Part shown: positions 2,453-20,494 of the stretch, one piece after another
Layout of the letters: each line of letters begins with the position of its first letter
How positions within the stretch are numbered: the stretch's first letter is position 1
IMG/VR virus record: IMGVR_UViG_3300038673_000846
Span: 1 to 33,542 of that record
Source: a virus
Taxonomy: Duplodnaviria > Caudoviricetes
Direction: 5' to 3' (one strand)
Length of the DNA stretch: 33,542 nt
Program-made: the position numbers and the translations under genes
Notes under the pieces: model-generated
Told to the model about the DNA's origin: nothing
Databases searched by the model: none
What the model saw: the letters and a program-made list of their open reading frames with translations, nothing else

Positions 2453-4783
2453 TTAAAGGTCAGCCGTCACGCTGCTGAATATCGCTGTGTTCGTCCATGG
2501 AACTACATCATAACCTGAATTGCTAACCGGTATATGTAATGGTATTGCCACAGATACGTTACTCGCATTACGAAAGGCAAAGGCATTTGTTGCTGCTCCG
2601 GGCTGCATGGATTTATACGAATTACAAACCGTAAATTTCGGTCTGTTTGCAACCGTGCTTCCCGTGAATGCGTTTGCTGCGATTGAGTTTGCTGTCGTTC
2701 CTAAACTTGCCGGAAGCGTTAGTGTACCGGTTAATTCTTTGCAGTTATAAAACGCATTTGCAGATATCGTTGTAATTGTTGGTGTTCCACTAAACGTAAG
2801 CGCTGTAAATCCTGTTGAACCAGAAAACGCATGTTGACCAATTACAGTTACCGTTGCAGGAATGTCTATTGTTCCTGTCCTGTTTATATTATTATAGAAA
2901 CAATATGATAATATTGACGTTGTCGTTGTGTCAAGAGTAAGAGTCCCAGAATAACCAGTTGGAGAGATTAGTGCGACAACAGACCCCGATGTTTTCTTAT
3001 CATATAAAACATGATCAATTACCGGATAATTTATTGAACCACCTGTTATGTCCGTGAATTTCATCCTACTACCCAAATAATTTAAAGTGTTTAATGTTGT
3101 GAGAGTATTGGGTATTACAAGTGTTCCGACCCATGATGTACCGTCCCCAAGCCCATAAGCATCAAAATTAAGGGTTTCAAGAGTTGATGAAAATTCAAGA
3201 GTAATATTCCCACATCCTCCTAAACACCAAGATCCGATAGTTAACGTTGTAGGAGCATTAAATATCAAATCTATGGAAGTCGCCCCTCTAAAGCAGAATG
3301 AAGATATTGTTATACATGATGCCGGAAGAGTGATTGTGCCGCTGTCTTGGATATGGGAACAATACTGAAATGCAGCTGAACCAAGTATTGTACAAACTGA
3401 TGTTGGGGTAAAAGATAATCCCGTGAGTCCAGAACAACTTTGAAATGCTGATTCCCCAACTGCTGTTACTTTATTAGGTATAACTAATCCTCCCGTTCTT
3501 AAATTATTCCAACAACAATGATTCCCTATTCTCTCGGTATCTAATTCAAATGTAATTGTCCCTGTGTTCCCCTTTACAGAGTGTAGTGCATAATGGTTGC
3601 TTTCTTGGTATAAGACATCATCGTGTACATGATACCTTGACGGATTTGCCGAGACATCTATTGAAGAAAATCCACAATTTGCAAATGCCCCCTCTCCTAT
3701 TGATGTTACATCTGCCGTTATATTTAACACACCCGATATATTATAGCAGTTGTAAAATGTGTTTGCGCCTATTGTTTGTACTTTATTAAGTGAGGGGATG
3801 GTTGTGAGTGATGTATCATTTTTAAATGCGTCATTATTTATTGTAAGCAGAGAGTTGGGGAAAATATTAATACTTGAAAGTCCTGTCATATTTCCAAACA
3901 CTTGTGGGCCTATTGTTACAATTCCCTCGTTTAGTTTTAACGATGTAATTCCACTTGCACCATTAAAACAGGCTTGGTCAATAGAAATAATGTTTGATGG
4001 AATTTCTAATTCACCCACAATATATGGTGACCCGCCGCCTGAATCCCACCCCAACATACCGTAATTTATTTTTGTTGGTGTGTGTGAAATATAAAGGTGA
4101 CCTGTCAAAGGAACTTTATTCATGCAGAAAATGGGATATTCTGTAACATTATCAAGCTTGTGAATGTGTATGTATTTCAACATAGTGCTGCCGTTCGCAA
4201 CTATTGAGTTTATTTTGTCTCCACAATATAACCACTCGGGACCAACATATTGTACATTACATCGCATCGACTCCATATATGCATGATTTACTATCACCCA
4301 TTTTTTAGTTCCTGCAAAAGATATAGTGTGTGTCGATAAGTAAACGGTTTCATCTTTTAATTGACTTACCACTCTATTTGGTCCAATTAAAGATGTTGCT
4401 GTTTTTGATGTATAAGTAAATGTAGAACAATTCTCAAACATTATTGTCCCAGAAGAGGGAAATGCAGACGTGTCATATACGTTAATTGAAGTTGTCCATC
4501 CATTATATTTTTGTGATAATGCGGTCTCTATTTTTAAATCAAAAACATAGTCTATTCCCCCGTTTGAATAACCATATCTGTATGATGTCCCATGATTAAC
4601 AGATACTGTTATGGTTGCATCCGCTACTGAAAATATCCACTTTGCATCCTTGTTTTTAGAATAATATCTGCAAAATACATCGTAAATATCGACAGGTTGA
4701 ATTGTTCTGTCGAAATCGTCAGGAGCGCAGAATGTTTCAAATCCAAGCGCTGTTACCCTCTTTGGGTGATGTAGTATTCTCAT
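2453..4783 (-). CDS. BspA/TpLRR-type leucine-rich repeat protein, putative receptor-binding tail protein
   Basis: Many LxIPxxVTxIGxxAFxxCxxL repeats (e.g. LVIPNKVTAVGESAFQSCSGL, IDIPATVTVIGQHAFSGSTGF); ATGA-coupled to the tail tip gene; no signal peptide. Confidence 0.85.
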   Translation of the reverse strand: MRILHHPKRVTALGFETFCAPDDFDRTIQPVDIYDVFCRYYSKNKDAKWIFSVADATITVSVNHGTSYRYGYSNGGIDYVFDLKIETALSQKYNGWTTSINVYDTSAFPSSGTIMFENCSTFTYTSKTATSLIGPNRVVSQLKDETVYLSTHTISFAGTKKWVIVNHAYMESMRCNVQYVGPEWLYCGDKINSIVANGSTMLKYIHIHKLDNVTEYPIFCMNKVPLTGHLYISHTPTKINYGMLGWDSGGGSPYIVGELEIPSNIISIDQACFNGASGITSLKLNEGIVTIGPQVFGNMTGLSSINIFPNSLLTINNDAFKNDTSLTTIPSLNKVQTIGANTFYNCYNISGVLNITADVTSIGEGAFANCGFSSIDVSANPSRYHVHDDVLYQESNHYALHSVKGNTGTITFELDTERIGNHCCWNNLRTGGLVIPNKVTAVGESAFQSCSGLTGLSFTPTSVCTILGSAAFQYCSHIQDSGTITLPASCITISSFCFRGATSIDLIFNAPTTLTIGSWCLGGCGNITLEFSSTLETLNFDAYGLGDGTSWVGTLVIPNTLTTLNTLNYLGSRMKFTDITGGSINYPVIDHVLYDKKTSGSVVALISPTGYSGTLTLDTTTTSILSYCFYNNINRTGTIDIPATVTVIGQHAFSGSTGFTALTFSGTPTITTISANAFYNCKELTGTLTLPASLGTTANSIAANAFTGSTVANRPKFTVCNSYKSMQPGAATNAFAFRNASNVSVAIPLHIPVSNSGYDVVPWTNTAIFSSVTADL

Positions 4784-11367: not shown

Positions 11368-11612
11368 TATGTAAGAAAATTAATGAGGTCTTTTTCGCTT
11401 TCAATTGGTCCCCCGTGCCTGACCTTTTTGGAGGTCACAAAGCGCGGGGCATCGGCCAACATCATCTGTAAATTCACCCAGCTGATGCCATCGAGGATAT
11501 ATCCGACTGTCCACCCTGTCGCGCTGGCTATGCTCCAGATGTGGCCCCAAGGGCTATTCAGGCCGACGGTTCGCCCTGTTGACTCCCTCGAAGATCCTGG
11601 CTCAGATTTTTC
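11367..11612 (-). CDS. Tail assembly chaperone C-terminal extension (gpGT-like), reached by -1 frameshift; not in the ORF track
   Basis: The -1 frame relative to 11558-12046 reads ...VGLNSPWGHIWSIASATGWTVGYILDGISWVNLQMMLADAPRFVTSKKVRHGGPIESEKDLINFLT*, has no ATG before the MM near its end and stops in a TAATG overlap with the tape measure start. Confidence 0.75.
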   Translation of the reverse strand, partial: EKSEPGSSRESTGRTVGLNSPWGHIWSIASATGWTVGYILDGISWVNLQMMLADAPRFVTSKKVRHGGPIESEKDLINFLT

Positions 11613-12642: not shown

Positions 12643-13698
12643 CTATTGAGAAGCATCCTGAACGATAGCGAGCAGACCGGCCACATCACTGCGCATAGGA
12701 CGGCCACCTGCGCGCACCAGGAAGGAATAGATGTCTCCGTAGTAGGTGGGGCTGGAAAGGTCCTCGAACATATTGACCTCGCCAAGGGCGCGGCATACGG
12801 AGTTTTCATGCCAGCAGAGTACGGCGCCGTGGTCGGTAGTGGCACCGGCAGCGGTCCAGGCTTTTGCAGCCAGGGAAGTATCATACCGTCCCGCCTTGCT
12901 GCGCAGCATGACATTGAAGCCCATGAGCTTCCCGACGATGCCGCGGGCCACATCGGCCTGGGCATGGAAGGCAGTGGCATCCTTGTCGGTCAGGCTGGTC
13001 AAAAGCTGGCTGTACATGACGGCATCGACCAGAGCATAACGGCCTTCCTGGGGAACATCCGCTTTATTGAATTCCCCCATCGCGGTCAAAAAGTCAGTCA
13101 CGACCAAAGCTTTCCGGTTGTTGGTAGCGCTCGGCACATGGGCCAATACGGCGGAACCGGTAGTGCGTATGCACTTGGCTGCAGCAGGAGACCATTTGGT
13201 AATGAAGTCGTCACCCACCACACTGATCAGGTTGGCACGATCCACCCTGAGCACACTGTCACGTTTACTGTAGCTAAGTTCAACCGTTTCTGCGTTGGGG
13301 ATCCGGATAGGGTCGGTAGTGAATTCATCCAGATCAAAGCTTAAATCAGTATCGACACGCGCGCTGACCGTGGCAGGAAACTCGCTGCGGTTCTTCACGA
13401 CAGAAGACGCAGTACCCGCATTGGGTATTCTGACGGTCTTCCCCTGGTTGACGAACTCGTCGGCATTGAATGCCTTGCTCAAAAACGAGTTGTCAGCGAA
13501 GAGTCCTTCGACTATAGTAGCCATCCAGATCTCTTTCTGGATAGCCATAGAGAGCACGCCCTGAGGCTGAGGGAGGAAGGAGAGCCCTACCAGGACCCCC
13601 GACACGGCATAGGGGTTCAACCCCACGGCCACATTGGCCACTGCTCCGCCCATCAGGGCGAAGGTGAGCACGAAAAGAACGGAAAGGAATTTTTTCAT
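12643..13698 (-). CDS. Major capsid protein (HK97-fold, P22 coat-like) with ~50-aa hydrophobic N-terminal extension
   Basis: MAIQKEIW...GKTVRIPNAG...VPQEGRYALVD...GIVGKLMGFNV...YYGDIYSFLVRAGG; downstream of the protease/scaffold gene. Confidence 0.85.
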   Translation of the reverse strand: MKKFLSVLFVLTFALMGGAVANVAVGLNPYAVSGVLVGLSFLPQPQGVLSMAIQKEIWMATIVEGLFADNSFLSKAFNADEFVNQGKTVRIPNAGTASSVVKNRSEFPATVSARVDTDLSFDLDEFTTDPIRIPNAETVELSYSKRDSVLRVDRANLISVVGDDFITKWSPAAAKCIRTTGSAVLAHVPSATNNRKALVVTDFLTAMGEFNKADVPQEGRYALVDAVMYSQLLTSLTDKDATAFHAQADVARGIVGKLMGFNVMLRSKAGRYDTSLAAKAWTAAGATTDHGAVLCWHENSVCRALGEVNMFEDLSSPTYYGDIYSFLVRAGGRPMRSDVAGLLAIVQDASQ

Positions 13699-14166: not shown

Positions 14167-15150
14167 TCAAGATTTTGCAGTTTTCTTTCCGAAGCGGAGC
14201 TCGAACTTTTCGGCATAGACATCCGGGTATTTGGATTTGAGCAGAGTCAGTTTCCCTGACTTGTCAAGGTCGTCCCAGTCTCTTCCGGCCAGGTCGGCCA
14301 GTTCGGCATTGGCGGTTTGGGTCTGCGCCTCGATCATGGCGGTAACGCTCTTGCGAACGGGGATGGCTTCCAGTGTAGCCTTGGCGGCATCGAAATCAGA
14401 GTCGAAAAGTTTCAGGAAGTTTTCCCTGGCTTTTGCGTCAATTTGGCCGGCGGCGATAGCAGCGTCGACCAGAGCAACGGCCTGTGCAGTCTTTGCATCC
14501 TTGGCCGCCTGGTTGAATTCATCAATGCGGGAAGACAGAGCGACATTTTCCGAGCGGAGCCGGTCGTTATCGCCAAGAACAGCCTGCACAGCGGCGGTTA
14601 CTTCGGCCTCTGTGGCCGTGTCCGCCAGTTTCAAAATAACTGCGAGTTGTTTCATATCTGCGTGCGGTAATGGTGTCGTAGTTGACAGGTCGAAGAGTTT
14701 CATCACCTCCTCGTTTTCCACCAGGTCACCGGTGGTGCGGTCATAAAAGGCCAGGGCGTTGTGGTTGGCCGGGATCGTGACGATCGACGCCTCACGCGCC
14801 ATCCATTTTTTTATGGTGACCTGGCGTTTTCCTGTAACCTGGTCATATGACTCCAGGGAATCCTCAGGATTTGGGACCCAGGCACCAATCGAGGCGGCGC
14901 GAATGAAATTGCGCTCCACCTTGTCTGCCACCTGGCGGGCCACCGGGTCGTTGTCGTCAAAAACAGGATCGGCGAGAATCTTCGTTCCATCCACCCTGAT
15001 GTTCTCCCAGCGGCCGATCGGCATGGACCAGTCGTTGTGGTTGAGAAGCAGTACTGGGTTTTTGCGGAATTCCGTCAGATCACCTCCTGAGACGAGCATC
15101 CGGAATCCCCGAGTATTCCATGATTCGTCGTGAAGAACGAAACTTTTCAT
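14167..15150 (-). CDS. Prohead maturation protease fused to a scaffold domain (Mu gpI/gpZ-like)
   Basis: NPVLLLNHN (His), PIGRW, IRAASIG (Ser), REASIVTIPAN are HK97-type protease motifs; Ala-rich helical C-terminal half. Likely start MKSFVLHDE at 15150. Confidence 0.88.
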   Translation of the reverse strand: MKSFVLHDESWNTRGFRMLVSGGDLTEFRKNPVLLLNHNDWSMPIGRWENIRVDGTKILADPVFDDNDPVARQVADKVERNFIRAASIGAWVPNPEDSLESYDQVTGKRQVTIKKWMAREASIVTIPANHNALAFYDRTTGDLVENEEVMKLFDLSTTTPLPHADMKQLAVILKLADTATEAEVTAAVQAVLGDNDRLRSENVALSSRIDEFNQAAKDAKTAQAVALVDAAIAAGQIDAKARENFLKLFDSDFDAAKATLEAIPVRKSVTAMIEAQTQTANAELADLAGRDWDDLDKSGKLTLLKSKYPDVYAEKFELRFGKKTAKS

Positions 15151-15224
15151 AGGCAACTTTTTTATGTTTTTTGCACTTTCAACGGGTCTAAGTAATATGT
15201 TCATCAACTCGCAATCAACTTTCT

Positions 15225-15260
15225 CTGCAACGGTTGCAACTTTTACTGCAACGGTTGCAG
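15225..15260. promoter_or_regulatory. Twin palindromic operators TGCAAC-G-GTTGCA between the divergent late operons
   Basis: CTGCAACGGTTGCAA (15225-15239) and CTGCAACGGTTGCAG (15246-15260), 21 bp apart. Confidence 0.75.
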
Positions 15261-15265
15261 ACTTT

Positions 15266-15297
15266 TTTGTCATAATATTCCGCTGCATCTACCTTCG
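15266..15297 (+). promoter_or_regulatory. Putative Bacteroidota-type promoter of the terminase operon
   Basis: TTTG(15266-69)-N20-TACCTTCG(15290-97), one mismatch to TAnnTTTG; 18 bp upstream of the small terminase start. Confidence 0.5.
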
Positions 15298-17301: not shown

Positions 17302-17634
17302 ATGATGCTTAAACGCCTTTTAAAAAACATCAGGGGGCTGTGGGTCAGATTCCGGGGCCGCCCTGCAGCACTGAAAAGGGAGATCGAAAGGGCCAACGCC
17401 CTTTGCCTGAAAAACAAGAAGCGCTACCGGGTATTCTTTCTTAACGGGAGATACACCTCCATGACACGCACCCAGGTGCAGTGGAAAAAACATACCGGCG
17501 ACTGGGGGCGTCATGTGAACATGACCAAAATGGAACCTATGGAGTTCTATGACACCCTTGACGGGATGTCTACCATAGGAAAGAAAGTTTTAAACCACAA
17601 AAAACACCGCAATGGCATTTTTGACCACCAGTGA
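17302..17634 (+). CDS. Basic hypothetical phage protein
   Basis: 110-aa ORF filling the gap between terL and the gp36-like gene, same strand. Confidence 0.6.
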   Translation: MMLKRLLKNIRGLWVRFRGRPAALKREIERANALCLKNKKRYRVFFLNGRYTSMTRTQVQWKKHTGDWGRHVNMTKMEPMEFYDTLDGMSTIGKKVLNHKKHRNGIFDHQ

Positions 17635-18034: not shown

Positions 18035-20494
18035 ATGGCCAAGAAAGAAACCACCAAGCTGGTCACTCCTCAGCTTGTCATAAAAGCGCCGAACCGGCAG
18101 AGCGCTGATGTCGGAGCCTGGCGTAATGCCTTGCGCAGTGCCGACGGCGGAAGGGTAAAAAGCCTGTATGATCTCTTCGATGATCTGCTGATTGACGGTG
18201 TTCTGAGCGATGCTGTGGAAAAACGCGTGCAAGCCGTGACTAACTCTGCCGTCACCTTCCAGGATGCCGACGGTGCGGAGGTGCCTGAGATGGCCGCCAT
18301 CATCGACACCGAGGCTTTCGAGGAACTGGAAAAGACCATCCTCGACTCACTTTTCTGGGGCAGATCGGGCGGGGAATTCGCTTTCTCAGAGACAGGGTTC
18401 ACCTTTACCGCCATCAACCCCAAGCACATCAAGCCCGAGAACAAGAATATACTCCTTACAGAAGGAGATGAAACAGGGATCCCATATGAAGAGGATGATC
18501 ATCTTCTTGTGCTTGGTAAGCCGCGCCGGTTCGGGCTGCTGCTCAAGGCTGCCCCTTATGTAATCTGGAAGCGGGGAGGGTTCGGCGATTATGCGCAGTG
18601 GCTTGAACTCTTCGGAATGCCCCAGCGGGTCGGCAAATACTCCAGCTATGACCCCGAAAGCCGCAAACTTCTCGAACAGGCCCTTGAAGCGGCCGGATCA
18701 GCCCCCTGGATAGTGGTACCAAAAGAAACCGATGTGGAAACCACCTCCAACAGCGGAGGGGGATCCGGGGATAGTTATGACGGTTTCCGCCGGGCTTGTA
18801 ACGAGGAGGTTCTGATCACCATACTTGGACAGACCCTTACCACCACCCAGAACGATACCGGGGCCCGGTCGCTTGGGGAAGTTCACAAGCAGGTAGAAGA
18901 GGGTAAGAACCGCGCCGACATGCGCTTTGTTCAGCGGGTATTGAACCAGTATGTGGTGCCACTTCTTGAAAAACGCGGATACCCGGTAACCGGAGGAAAA
19001 TTCGTGTTCCCCGAGGCTGCGACCGAACTCACAGTGGCCGACATCGTACAGCTCTGCGATATCCTTGACATCCCGGCAAGCTTCCTGCACGATAAGTTCA
19101 GTATCCCTGTCCCAGCGGACGGTGAGCCGATCGCGCGCCGCGCAGCACAACCGGTCGTCATGCCAGTCCCGGCTGATGACAGTGAGGAAGAGCAGGACGA
19201 GGAAGAGCCTGTCAAGAACAGGGACCGCGGGTTCTGGTGGAGGATGATGCGTTTTTTCGTGGGGGCCCCGCAGAGCGGGGCATTCAAACCCGGAACCCTC
19301 ACGCTGAGTGACAGCCTCGACGACCGCATCATAGAGGCAGCAGTCAATGGCAATAAGTTCCTGCCTGACCTCTTCTCATGGATCTCTACCGACCTTGTCA
19401 GCGCACTCGACAGTAAGCCCGTCAAACTTGCCGACCTGGGCTTTACCTACGGGTACCAGAACGATGTTTTCAGAACAGCCCAGGAGCTGAATGTCTTTCA
19501 TTTCAGCGCGGCCAAAACCCTGGCTGAACTGCAGGAGCTCAATCGCATTTACCGCGAAAGCAGCAGCTACGACGATTTCCGGAAGAAAGCCGCCGAGGTG
19601 ACCAGGACATATAATGAGGTCTGGCAGAAAACAGAGTGGCAGACAGGCACCTTGATCAGCGAGTCAACGGCCAATTACAACCGCCTGGCAGGGAAGAAAA
19701 AACTTTTCCCATATTGGCAGTACAAGACGGTAGGCGATGATAAGGTGAGGCCAGAGCATCGCATGATCGACGACGTGGTGCTCCCTGCCGACGATCCACG
19801 GTGGAAGAAGATCTGGCCGCCCAACGGATGGAAATGCCGCTGCTATGTGGTTCCAAAGATGCGGCACGAAGTCACCGAGGCGATGGTCACAGAAAGCAGG
19901 CGCCGTGTCGATGCGTTCCTGGAGAGTGCCGAGTGGAAGAAAGCGGCTGCCCAGGGTTTCGGGGTTAACAGGGCCCTCATGCCTGAGATCTATTCCGAGG
20001 ATCAGCAGTATATCTCCAAATTCCCGCAACAGGCCAGCAGCCTGCTCGGCGATGTCAACTACCAGACTTATGGTCTGGGATCCTATGCTGATAACCGGAA
20101 GAAGGCAGTGCTTGATATGCCGGTATATTCAGGTACCACAGCCAACTTCGTTAAATCTCTGGTAACTGAGGCGGGGAAAACCTTCATGACCGATTACGTG
20201 GGGCGCAAGGTGCTCCTTCCCGCGAAAGTGAGCAAGGAGATGACACCTGCCATCCAGGCGGCTTCTGAAGCCCTGAAGATGCCCGACGAGGTATGGATCA
20301 ACGGCGATGCCAAGAATGGATTCTCTGAGCTTGTATCCCTGAAATATTACCGTGATGCCACCGTGGCCGTCACCAGCGTGGTGAGGGGCGGTAGAATATA
20401 CCAGGTGAAATCGTGGAGCGTAGTCAACGAGAAGGAGAAGGGGAAGAAGAAAGCGCTTCGTTGGGGACTTCTCATTAAAAATGTGAAGCGATGA
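18035..20494 (+). CDS. Portal (Mu gp29/DUF935-like) fused to a MuF head-morphogenesis domain and a C-terminal PBECR-like domain
   Basis: Portal: WLELFGMPQRVGKY, ILGQTLTT, ARSLGEVH; acidic linker DDSEEEQDEEE; MuF: WQYKTVGDDKVRPEH...PPNGWKCRC; C-terminal LKMPDEVW. Confidence 0.88.
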   Translation: MAKKETTKLVTPQLVIKAPNRQSADVGAWRNALRSADGGRVKSLYDLFDDLLIDGVLSDAVEKRVQAVTNSAVTFQDADGAEVPEMAAIIDTEAFEELEKTILDSLFWGRSGGEFAFSETGFTFTAINPKHIKPENKNILLTEGDETGIPYEEDDHLLVLGKPRRFGLLLKAAPYVIWKRGGFGDYAQWLELFGMPQRVGKYSSYDPESRKLLEQALEAAGSAPWIVVPKETDVETTSNSGGGSGDSYDGFRRACNEEVLITILGQTLTTTQNDTGARSLGEVHKQVEEGKNRADMRFVQRVLNQYVVPLLEKRGYPVTGGKFVFPEAATELTVADIVQLCDILDIPASFLHDKFSIPVPADGEPIARRAAQPVVMPVPADDSEEEQDEEEPVKNRDRGFWWRMMRFFVGAPQSGAFKPGTLTLSDSLDDRIIEAAVNGNKFLPDLFSWISTDLVSALDSKPVKLADLGFTYGYQNDVFRTAQELNVFHFSAAKTLAELQELNRIYRESSSYDDFRKKAAEVTRTYNEVWQKTEWQTGTLISESTANYNRLAGKKKLFPYWQYKTVGDDKVRPEHRMIDDVVLPADDPRWKKIWPPNGWKCRCYVVPKMRHEVTEAMVTESRRRVDAFLESAEWKKAAAQGFGVNRALMPEIYSEDQQYISKFPQQASSLLGDVNYQTYGLGSYADNRKKAVLDMPVYSGTTANFVKSLVTEAGKTFMTDYVGRKVLLPAKVSKEMTPAIQAASEALKMPDEVWINGDAKNGFSELVSLKYYRDATVAVTSVVRGGRIYQVKSWSVVNEKEKGKKKALRWGLLIKNVKR
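19252..19281 (+). promoter_or_regulatory. Putative programmed -1 ribosomal frameshift signal inside the portal-MuF gene
   Basis: In-frame T_TTT_TTC (19252-58), 6-nt spacer, stem GCCCCGC-AGA-GCGGGGC (19265-81); the -1 frame stops at TGA 19309-11. Confidence 0.7.

Follow-up and report, generated by a model that had tools for sequence, protein, structure and literature searches.

The stretch of DNA analysed here (the window) is 33,542 nt of viral sequence, IMG/VR record IMGVR_UViG_3300038673_000846, and carries a single gene that joins a Mu-type portal domain to a MuF domain and a PBECR2-like C-terminus. Comparison with homologous genes suggested that two portal subunits are specified by this one gene: a −1 ribosomal frameshift at the slippery heptamer T TTT TTC would yield a short portal of 425 aa (47.1 kDa), and reading on in the 0 frame would yield the full fusion of 819 aa (91.8 kDa). 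We put the probability of this explanation, taken as a whole and the best of those considered, at roughly 0.86. The −1 frameshift signal is real and very probably functional, and the short portal of about 47 kDa is very likely made.

The initial annotation of the gene had described a single 819-aa open reading frame (ORF) joining a Mu-type portal to MuF, together with the heptamer, a 6-nt spacer, a GC stem, the −1 tail and its stop. ORF analysis and Pfam bore out its coordinates and domains, and a check of the sequence found every position of the site correct. The window contains 34 in-frame heptamers of the X_XXY_YYZ form in 10,374 codons, and three besides that of the portal gene also precede folds of −14.9 kcal/mol or lower; the 82-nt fold downstream of the portal heptamer had a z of −1.5. 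As the site is one among 34 heptamers and among four that precede a strong fold, the case needed homologues. Heptamers at 17319-17325 (+ strand) and 23055 (− strand) are in frame and have strong downstream folds (−14.9 to −16.8 kcal/mol).

No indel was seen at the slip site in contigs of four sequencing runs from four studies, contigs being assemblies that drop rare variants. The sole change within positions 19240-19315 across these contigs was A19274G in the loop, found in three of the four runs.

Seven locus searches and four annotated records yielded 451 sequences, the window included. Both a portal end and a MuF match were present in 411; the other 40 were dropped for having no portal end or no MuF match within reach, among them loci such as L161-L168, whose portal ends early ahead of an unrelated gene. 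Removal of near copies by shared 12-mers left 179 loci: in 149 MuF is fused in frame to the portal, as in the window (type A), whereas it lies in the −1 frame of 26 (type B) and in the +1 frame of four. The A:B ratio should not be read as a census, two of the query alignments having been built from short portals chosen by their C-termini.

A Phe-Phe pair is found in the linker of 141 of the 149 type A loci, and the exact in-frame T TTT TTC in 135 (134 at the pair picked in the analysis, plus L203 at an unpicked pair). The remaining type A loci have T TTT TTT (two), T TTT with spacer and stem (three), an A run (eight) or none of these (L149). The exact heptamer is also present in 22 of the 26 non-redundant type B loci. 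At other Phe-Phe pairs of the same genes T TTT TTC was found in 7 of 125 cases, and the two Phe codons are used nearly evenly in these genes (2721 TTC, 2538 TTT). In type A a U closes the codon preceding the heptamer, whether this codon specifies Asp, Arg, Ser, Gly, Asn or Ala.

The spacer is 6 nt long in 120 of the 141 type A loci with a Phe-Phe pair. Stems of at least six Watson-Crick pairs follow in 131 of the 141, compared with 130 of 2980 random positions, and the homologues show a trough in folding energy directly 3' of the heptamer. The Ala codon of the stem is GCC in 133 of 133 cases; gene-wide, GCC accounts for 37%. Compensatory arm changes were detected at five of six stem positions, the encoded residues changing too (arm pairs GCCCGG/CCGGGC, GCCCTG/CAGGGC, GCCACG/CGTGGC, GTCCCG/CGGGAC, GCTCCT/AGGAGC and GGGCGA/TCGCCC); the stem Pro is swapped for Arg, Leu, Thr or Ser with pairing preserved, and loop lengths vary widely. 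The synonymous fixation and the compensatory pairs indicate that the constraint acts on the RNA, and not on the protein alone. No conserved upstream Shine-Dalgarno (SD) stimulator was found: 18 of the 134 fused loci and 6 of the 22 split ones have an SD-like 4-mer 5-18 nt upstream, and the GGAGG at 19239-19243 is particular to the window.

In distant clades the same joint carries A AAA AAG or a run of 8-10 A, and the gene is either a fusion whose −1 frame stops almost at once or a split one that has its MuF in the −1 frame. The loci with A runs (L164, L301, L302, L303, L304, L322, L325, L330, L347, L353 and L354) often have Cys/His-rich linker segments downstream, and slippage in them may be ribosomal or of the polymerase.

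The −1 tail of the short portal was analysed in those 134 type A loci that carry the exact site at the picked pair. Tails are 1 to 36 codons long; none exceeds 36 codons, as 19% of control positions do, and 2% are shorter than 10 codons, compared with 42% of controls. Pro-His occurs in 70 of the 134 tails and in 99 of 4020 control windows. Of these 70, 58 have a Trp three residues ahead of the pair and 56 a Ser or Asn one residue ahead of it (W-x-S-P-H type). Pro is encoded in this class by all four codons and Ser by both TCN and AGY, and the 0-frame residues over the motif vary (L/R/P/H and T/I/M); a U precedes the overlapping Gly codon in 58 of 58 cases, across 11 amino acids, over a background of 21%. 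In a test independent of Pro-His, both 0-frame synonymous positions were C in 73 of 137 overlap codon pairs, compared with 87 of 1484 pairs upstream and 13 of 218 downstream of the overlap.

A second class of tail, [EQ][IVL][DNE]xxY (ELxREIDxxY type), was found in 42 of the 134 tails and in none of 4020 controls, with I, V or L in the −1 frame over L, S or W in the 0 frame; 18 of the 23 type B loci have a pattern like it at the start of their −1 extension. Either motif class is carried by 112 of the 134 tails, and neither by 22. The tail of the window ends in T-R-N-P-H-A-E and is a degenerate member of the W-x-S-P-H class. Selection on the amino acids of the −1 frame indicates that this frame is translated; judged by these sequence patterns, the −1 tail is a conserved peptide and more than a device for reaching a stop.

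The opposite polarity was observed in type B. The same T run was found in 23 of the 26 type B loci, 1-14 codons upstream of the portal stop and with a −1 ORF of 278-491 codons counted from the site, and all 22 of these −1 frames that were submitted to Pfam matched Phage_Mu_F (E ≤ 0.01). No ATG lies ahead of the MuF core in 10 of the 23, and no ATG, GTG or TTG up to 75 nt beyond the portal stop in 13 of the 23. Hankyphage and Elizabethkingia phage TCUEAP3 belong to type B. An ATG overlaps the portal stop of hankyphage, where MuF is possibly made by coupled initiation; in TCUEAP3 the annotation places MuF about 275 nt beyond the portal stop, with an open −1 frame in between. The Porphyromonas gingivalis phage PP754930 is of type A, with a complete signal. 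A DNA pattern derived from type B was found at 120 viral loci, 115 of them at the end of a portal-matching frame; the −1 frame is at least 250 codons long in 76, complete at 219 codons in one, and cut by the locus ends in the others. Both predictions that the initial annotation had made about homologues were borne out, conservation of TTTTTTC plus hairpin by most type A loci and the occurrence of MuF in the −1 frame by the 23 type B loci.

The fused and split types interleave on a tree of the portal domain (52 rows, of which 21 are of type B and 31 were selected from type A), with six label changes, at least four of them forced by well-supported branches; this tree came from a quick search with midpoint root, so the direction of the changes is not established, and module exchange could add label changes. 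Among the split-type loci L448, L152, L158, L166 and L239 the C-terminal domains of MuF differ (glutamine deamidase in hankyphage, CdiA_C-like, LPD3). A further arrangement was seen in L238 (~4190-4260) and proteins P0122, P0123, P0124 and P0154, in which the T run is one base shorter and the portal ends in frame with F-S-F-S-F..P-R..L-Y, resembling the −1 tail of the fused genes; in L238, MuF is in the +1 frame with an ATG 32 nt ahead of the stop. This arrangement could be due to a +1 slip, a separate start or homopolymer errors. In L161, L162, L163, L165, L167 and L168, portals of about 370 aa end before the linker and a different gene comes next, with no MuF match in the fetched flank.

The conserved signal might also be a relic of ancestors with MuF in the −1 frame, in which case the phage would make the fusion only and a protease would trim it. 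Split-type loci do lie on several deep branches, candidate cleavage motifs flank the joint and the fused locus L149 has lost the signal. A relic is nevertheless very improbable, because synonymous sites and compensatory stem changes are kept inside fused lineages and selection at the amino-acid level acts on the −1 tail in 112 of 134 fused loci. Of much the same low probability is the explanation that Phe-Phe-x-x-Ala-Pro is a protein motif and the hairpin a terminator, pause, processing site or DNA operator, the frames being incidental: the segment ending in Phe-Phe is indeed kept as a protein pattern in both polarities, but the codon choice is fixed beyond what the protein requires, Pro gives way to other residues with pairing kept while loop lengths vary, neither a terminator-like site nor a credible Rfam match was found, and the start-less MuF ORFs that open at the T run are left unexplained.

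Slippage of RNA polymerase on the T run, by which some mRNAs would gain a U, is marginally less probable again. Six bases are short for polymerase slippage. The run keeps its six T and the C after them, stays in a single codon phase and is followed by the stem at a ribosome-sized 6-nt spacer, and this stem is not yet transcribed while the polymerase sits on the run; the contigs, although they drop rare variants, have no indel there. These features outweigh the presence of a T6 homopolymer, the A8-10 runs of related clades, which make such slippage plausible, and L325, with its MuF in the +1 frame behind A8.

Other candidates were rejected. Neither a terminator nor a promoter was found at the joint, and no terminator-like site between 18900 and 19700 on either strand; an intrinsic terminator would have its T run 3' of the stem, not 5' as here. 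A single Rfam match (E 0.99), far below the cut-off, was taken as chance. Sequencing or assembly error was discarded, the same site being present in the contigs of four runs and in relatives. A −2 or +1 slip does not agree with the variable −2 base or with the position of MuF in the −1 frame of the split type. An internal MuF start in the fused type was also discarded, as the ATG ATG at 19244-19249 has no counterpart in aligned relatives.

In the preferred reading, a programmed −1 frameshift, the stem would make the ribosome pause while tRNA-Phe occupies both sites on UUU UUC, and some of the ribosomes would slip by −1, both tRNA-Phe re-pairing on UUU UUU. Ribosomes that do not slip would produce the 92 kDa portal-MuF-PBECR fusion, and those that slip the 47 kDa portal, whose short tail is under selection and belongs to the W-x-S-P-H class. 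The two forms share the portal domain and would likely co-assemble into the 12-subunit ring, and such a mixed ring would carry MuF into the prohead in a set proportion.

The median stem energy is −15.1 kcal/mol in both polarities, and the idea of stronger stems in the fused type was rejected (no difference, p 0.94). With equal stems, a shift well under 50% would make MuF the minority form in type B and the majority form in type A; as the fusion is the default product, the phage of the window may make mostly fusion. The hankyphage mass spectrometry (MS) table (S6 of PMC12135933) lists 20 peptides (48%) for the portal and 3 peptides (9%) for MuF, counts that lean weakly towards MuF as the minority form in type B.

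Several points limit the case for two portal subunits or weigh against it. The signal in the window taken alone is only suggestive, and the case is built on conservation; the loci share ancestry, which makes the counts overstate independence, and the motif regular expressions were picked post hoc, after inspection of the data. The fused locus L149 is without any signal, as is the split locus L300, which has an ATG at the portal stop. Equal stems in both polarities are hard to reconcile with one fixed low copy number of MuF. In the MS data available for hankyphage, MuF and portal share the 250-85 kDa slice, in which small proteins are also found, and a fusion is thus neither shown nor excluded. 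Microbacterium phages have constitutive portal-MuF fusions, with no frameshift mentioned for them in the available text of PMC7302621, which shows that the short form is not universally needed.

Sites at which MuF might be released were also found. Motifs of the form L/N-[AS]-D reach a density of 2.45 per 100 aa in the linker and 0.38 elsewhere (118 proteins), a roughly six-fold difference. In homologues of the prohead protease, L-[AS]-D lies at the protease-scaffold border in 112 of 120 and near the C-terminus in 100 of 120; the permissive form of the pattern matches the protease core too (95/120 and 106/120), which weakens the lead. The T4 prohead protease reportedly cuts at I/L-x-E, and the Mu portal is said to be trimmed. 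Motif density and borders, together with the T4 cutting rule and the trimming of the Mu portal, make release of MuF after assembly a reasonable lead; that the prohead protease frees MuF at the L-[AS]-D sites is a tentative suggestion, with the odds slightly against it. The protease frame of the window is 373 aa long and its homologues match about 86% of it (~324 aa); the true start is probably near Met48.

The PBECR2 domain of the window is without about 11 residues that carry the conserved His/Arg in homologues, and the Ser is present. According to the available text of PMC5512222, an active PBECR RNase has a His (or Arg) within its N-terminal helix as well as a C-terminal Thr/Ser. The window domain, with the His/Arg segment deleted and a Pfam match below the cut-off, does not fit this description and looks decayed. 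As this segment is deleted, the phage probably loads no active nuclease through the MuF fusion. The initial annotation had proposed that recoding gives two isoforms and sets the number of covalently tethered MuF copies per ring, as a means of head assembly or effector loading. The two isoforms are strongly supported by the conservation, the cases of MuF in the −1 frame and the selected tail; a low MuF count per ring is not, the fusion being the default and the stems equal. The fusion ORF is there, and its tether may not last, since MuF may be cut off at the flanking L/N-[AS]-D motifs. The PBECR-like C-terminus is present as a weak match, and effector loading does not agree with the deleted His/Arg segment.

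As in canonical bacterial −1 frameshifting (IS3/IS911, dnaX), an X_XXY_YYZ heptamer is followed by a 3' stem-loop at 5-9 nt; the window site shows features of such signals, namely an in-frame heptamer, conserved 3' structure, synonymous conservation and −1 coding selection. In dnaX the shift yields the shorter product, as it would in portal-MuF. Unlike IS911 and dnaX, the site lies in a structural head gene of a phage and has no conserved upstream SD stimulator; the same signal occurs with either polarity, and selection acts on the tail of the short product. In lambda-like phages, the G/GT frameshift of the tail-assembly chaperone determines in what proportion two morphogenesis proteins with identical N-termini are made. 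The portal frameshift would also set a ratio of N-terminally identical proteins, but its site is in the portal gene and not in a chaperone gene before the tape measure, its products are predicted parts of the virion, and the long form of the window is the 0-frame product.

Retroviruses use a −1 shift to fix how much extended Gag-Pol is made relative to the structural protein Gag, and the particle protease may release the extension. The analogy lies in the ratio and in the possible release by a protease, the proteins being unrelated. A mixed ring of the Gag-Pol kind in transposable phages of Bacteroidota, in which the MuF/effector tail is freed by the protease, the other tail (WxSPH or ELxREIDxxY) is a short assembly signal and flips of polarity tune the effector load from a minority to a majority of subunits or back, is rather doubtful, somewhat more so than cleavage by the prohead protease.

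According to the portions of the cited papers available, IS1/IS3 elements make use of U_UUU_UUC, and some of the most efficient motifs in E. coli are of the H_HHU_UUY kind (PMC4066793); the lambda-like tail-chaperone frameshift is mentioned in PMC7302621 and PMC5009743. MuF genes lie behind portal genes and SPP1 gp7 binds the portal, with 1-2 copies per capsid (PMC5576092), and the portal-MuF-PBECR fusion architecture has already been published (PMC5512222); unlike the MuF polymorphic toxins, the PBECR2 of the window is without the His/Arg segment. No report of a portal/MuF frameshift was found in the literature searched, subscription journals lying outside it. The word "frameshift" is absent from the main text of PMC5576092, PMC5512222 and the Bxa paper, and term look-up in the available text of PMC5576092, PMC5512222, PMC11699363, PMC12135933, PMC10367356, PMC5009743 and PMC3711429 found no portal/MuF frameshift; the one mention of "frameshift" in that of PMC10367356 concerns spanins, and that of PMC11445458 yielded nothing further on the subject. 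The word "portal" is absent from PMC3711429 with two of its three supplements, as available, and from the first 300,000 of the 449,034 characters of PMC5009743. The proposed mechanism is a known one in an unreported place, with the flips of polarity and the selected tail of the short form as added features.

If the two-subunit reading is true, the portal gene joins a short list of phage genes with programmed frameshifting, and does so throughout a large group of Bacteroidota phages, with hankyphage, P. gingivalis prophages and an Elizabethkingia phage among them. Frameshifting would give a concrete answer on the route and number of MuF/toxin domains entering the capsid. It would also imply annotation errors: MuF genes of the split type would have been given late or false starts, and fused-type genes would miss the short portal. 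A recoding signal that stays in place as the long product switches between the 0 and −1 frames would offer a natural experiment, rare of its kind, on the evolution of product ratios.

The window comes from a Mu-like transposable phage and encodes a transposase, transposition ATPase, terminase, head-tail adaptor, prohead protease, major capsid protein and tape measure. Named relatives of its portal are almost entirely from Bacteroidota; the closest GenBank phages by portal are P. gingivalis prophages (~62% identity), and hankyphage p00 has 32%. The gene was found in sequencing runs from bioreactor, sludge and wastewater metagenomes. The fusion protein had 709 full-length homologues at E ≤ 1e-20 (7999 candidates scored). 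The assignment to Mu-type portals holds, with a profile match above the cut-off, a portal fold and a gene placed after the terminase; the top solved-structure matches of the protein model are the portals of JBD30 (8rka) and Mu (9knu). In the AlphaFold model the linker (residues 362-423) is of low confidence and uninformative on domain packing. F407, F408 and A411 are invariant in 52 aligned homologues. Coordinates of all features are given in Table 1.

Table 1. Features of the portal-MuF gene and of the prohead protease gene, in window coordinates.
Feature	Position	Strand	Details
Portal-MuF-PBECR2 fusion ORF	18035..20494	+	819 aa, 91.8 kDa, 0-frame product
Mu-type portal domain, Portal_Mu (PF06074), residues 45-357	18167..19105	+	Pfam E 8.6e-70
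Amphipathic-looking conserved segment ending Phe-Phe, residues 400-408, in both products	19232..19258	+	predicted helix, low confidence
Slippery heptamer U_UUU_UUC (T TTT TTC), in frame, codons 407-408	19252..19258	+	sequence
Spacer, 6 nt	19259..19264	+	sequence
Predicted stimulatory stem-loop GCCCCGC-aga-GCGGGGC, 7 G-C pairs, 3-nt loop	19265..19281	+	−13.7 kcal/mol alone
−1 frame tail of the predicted short portal, 17 codons + stop	19258..19311	+	reads FFRGGPAERGIQTRNPHAE, stop 19309-11
T-R-N-P-H, window's version of −1 frame W-x-S-P-H	19288..19302	+	motif comparison
L-S-D (424-426), candidate prohead-protease site	19304..19312	+	0-frame motif; putative cleavage
L-A-D, second candidate prohead-protease site	19427-19435	+	0-frame motif; putative cleavage
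MuF core, Phage_Mu_F (PF04233), residues 536-605	19640..19849	+	Pfam match above cut-off, behind portal
PBECR2-like C-terminal domain, likely inactive	20240..20467	+	Pfam E 0.0014, below cut-off
Prohead protease/scaffold gene	14167..15288	−	Peptidase_S78

Elsewhere in the window, the gene before the tape measure (− strand, start 12046, stop 11558) overlaps a −1 frame that is open to 11367 and has no early ATG, and G AAA AAT near 11612 on the same strand is a candidate tail-chaperone slip site. The major capsid protein (12643-13698, − strand) starts with some 50 hydrophobic residues ahead of its capsid domain, and these look like a signal or membrane leader. A tail-region protein (2453-4783, − strand) contains leucine-rich repeats of the BspA type.

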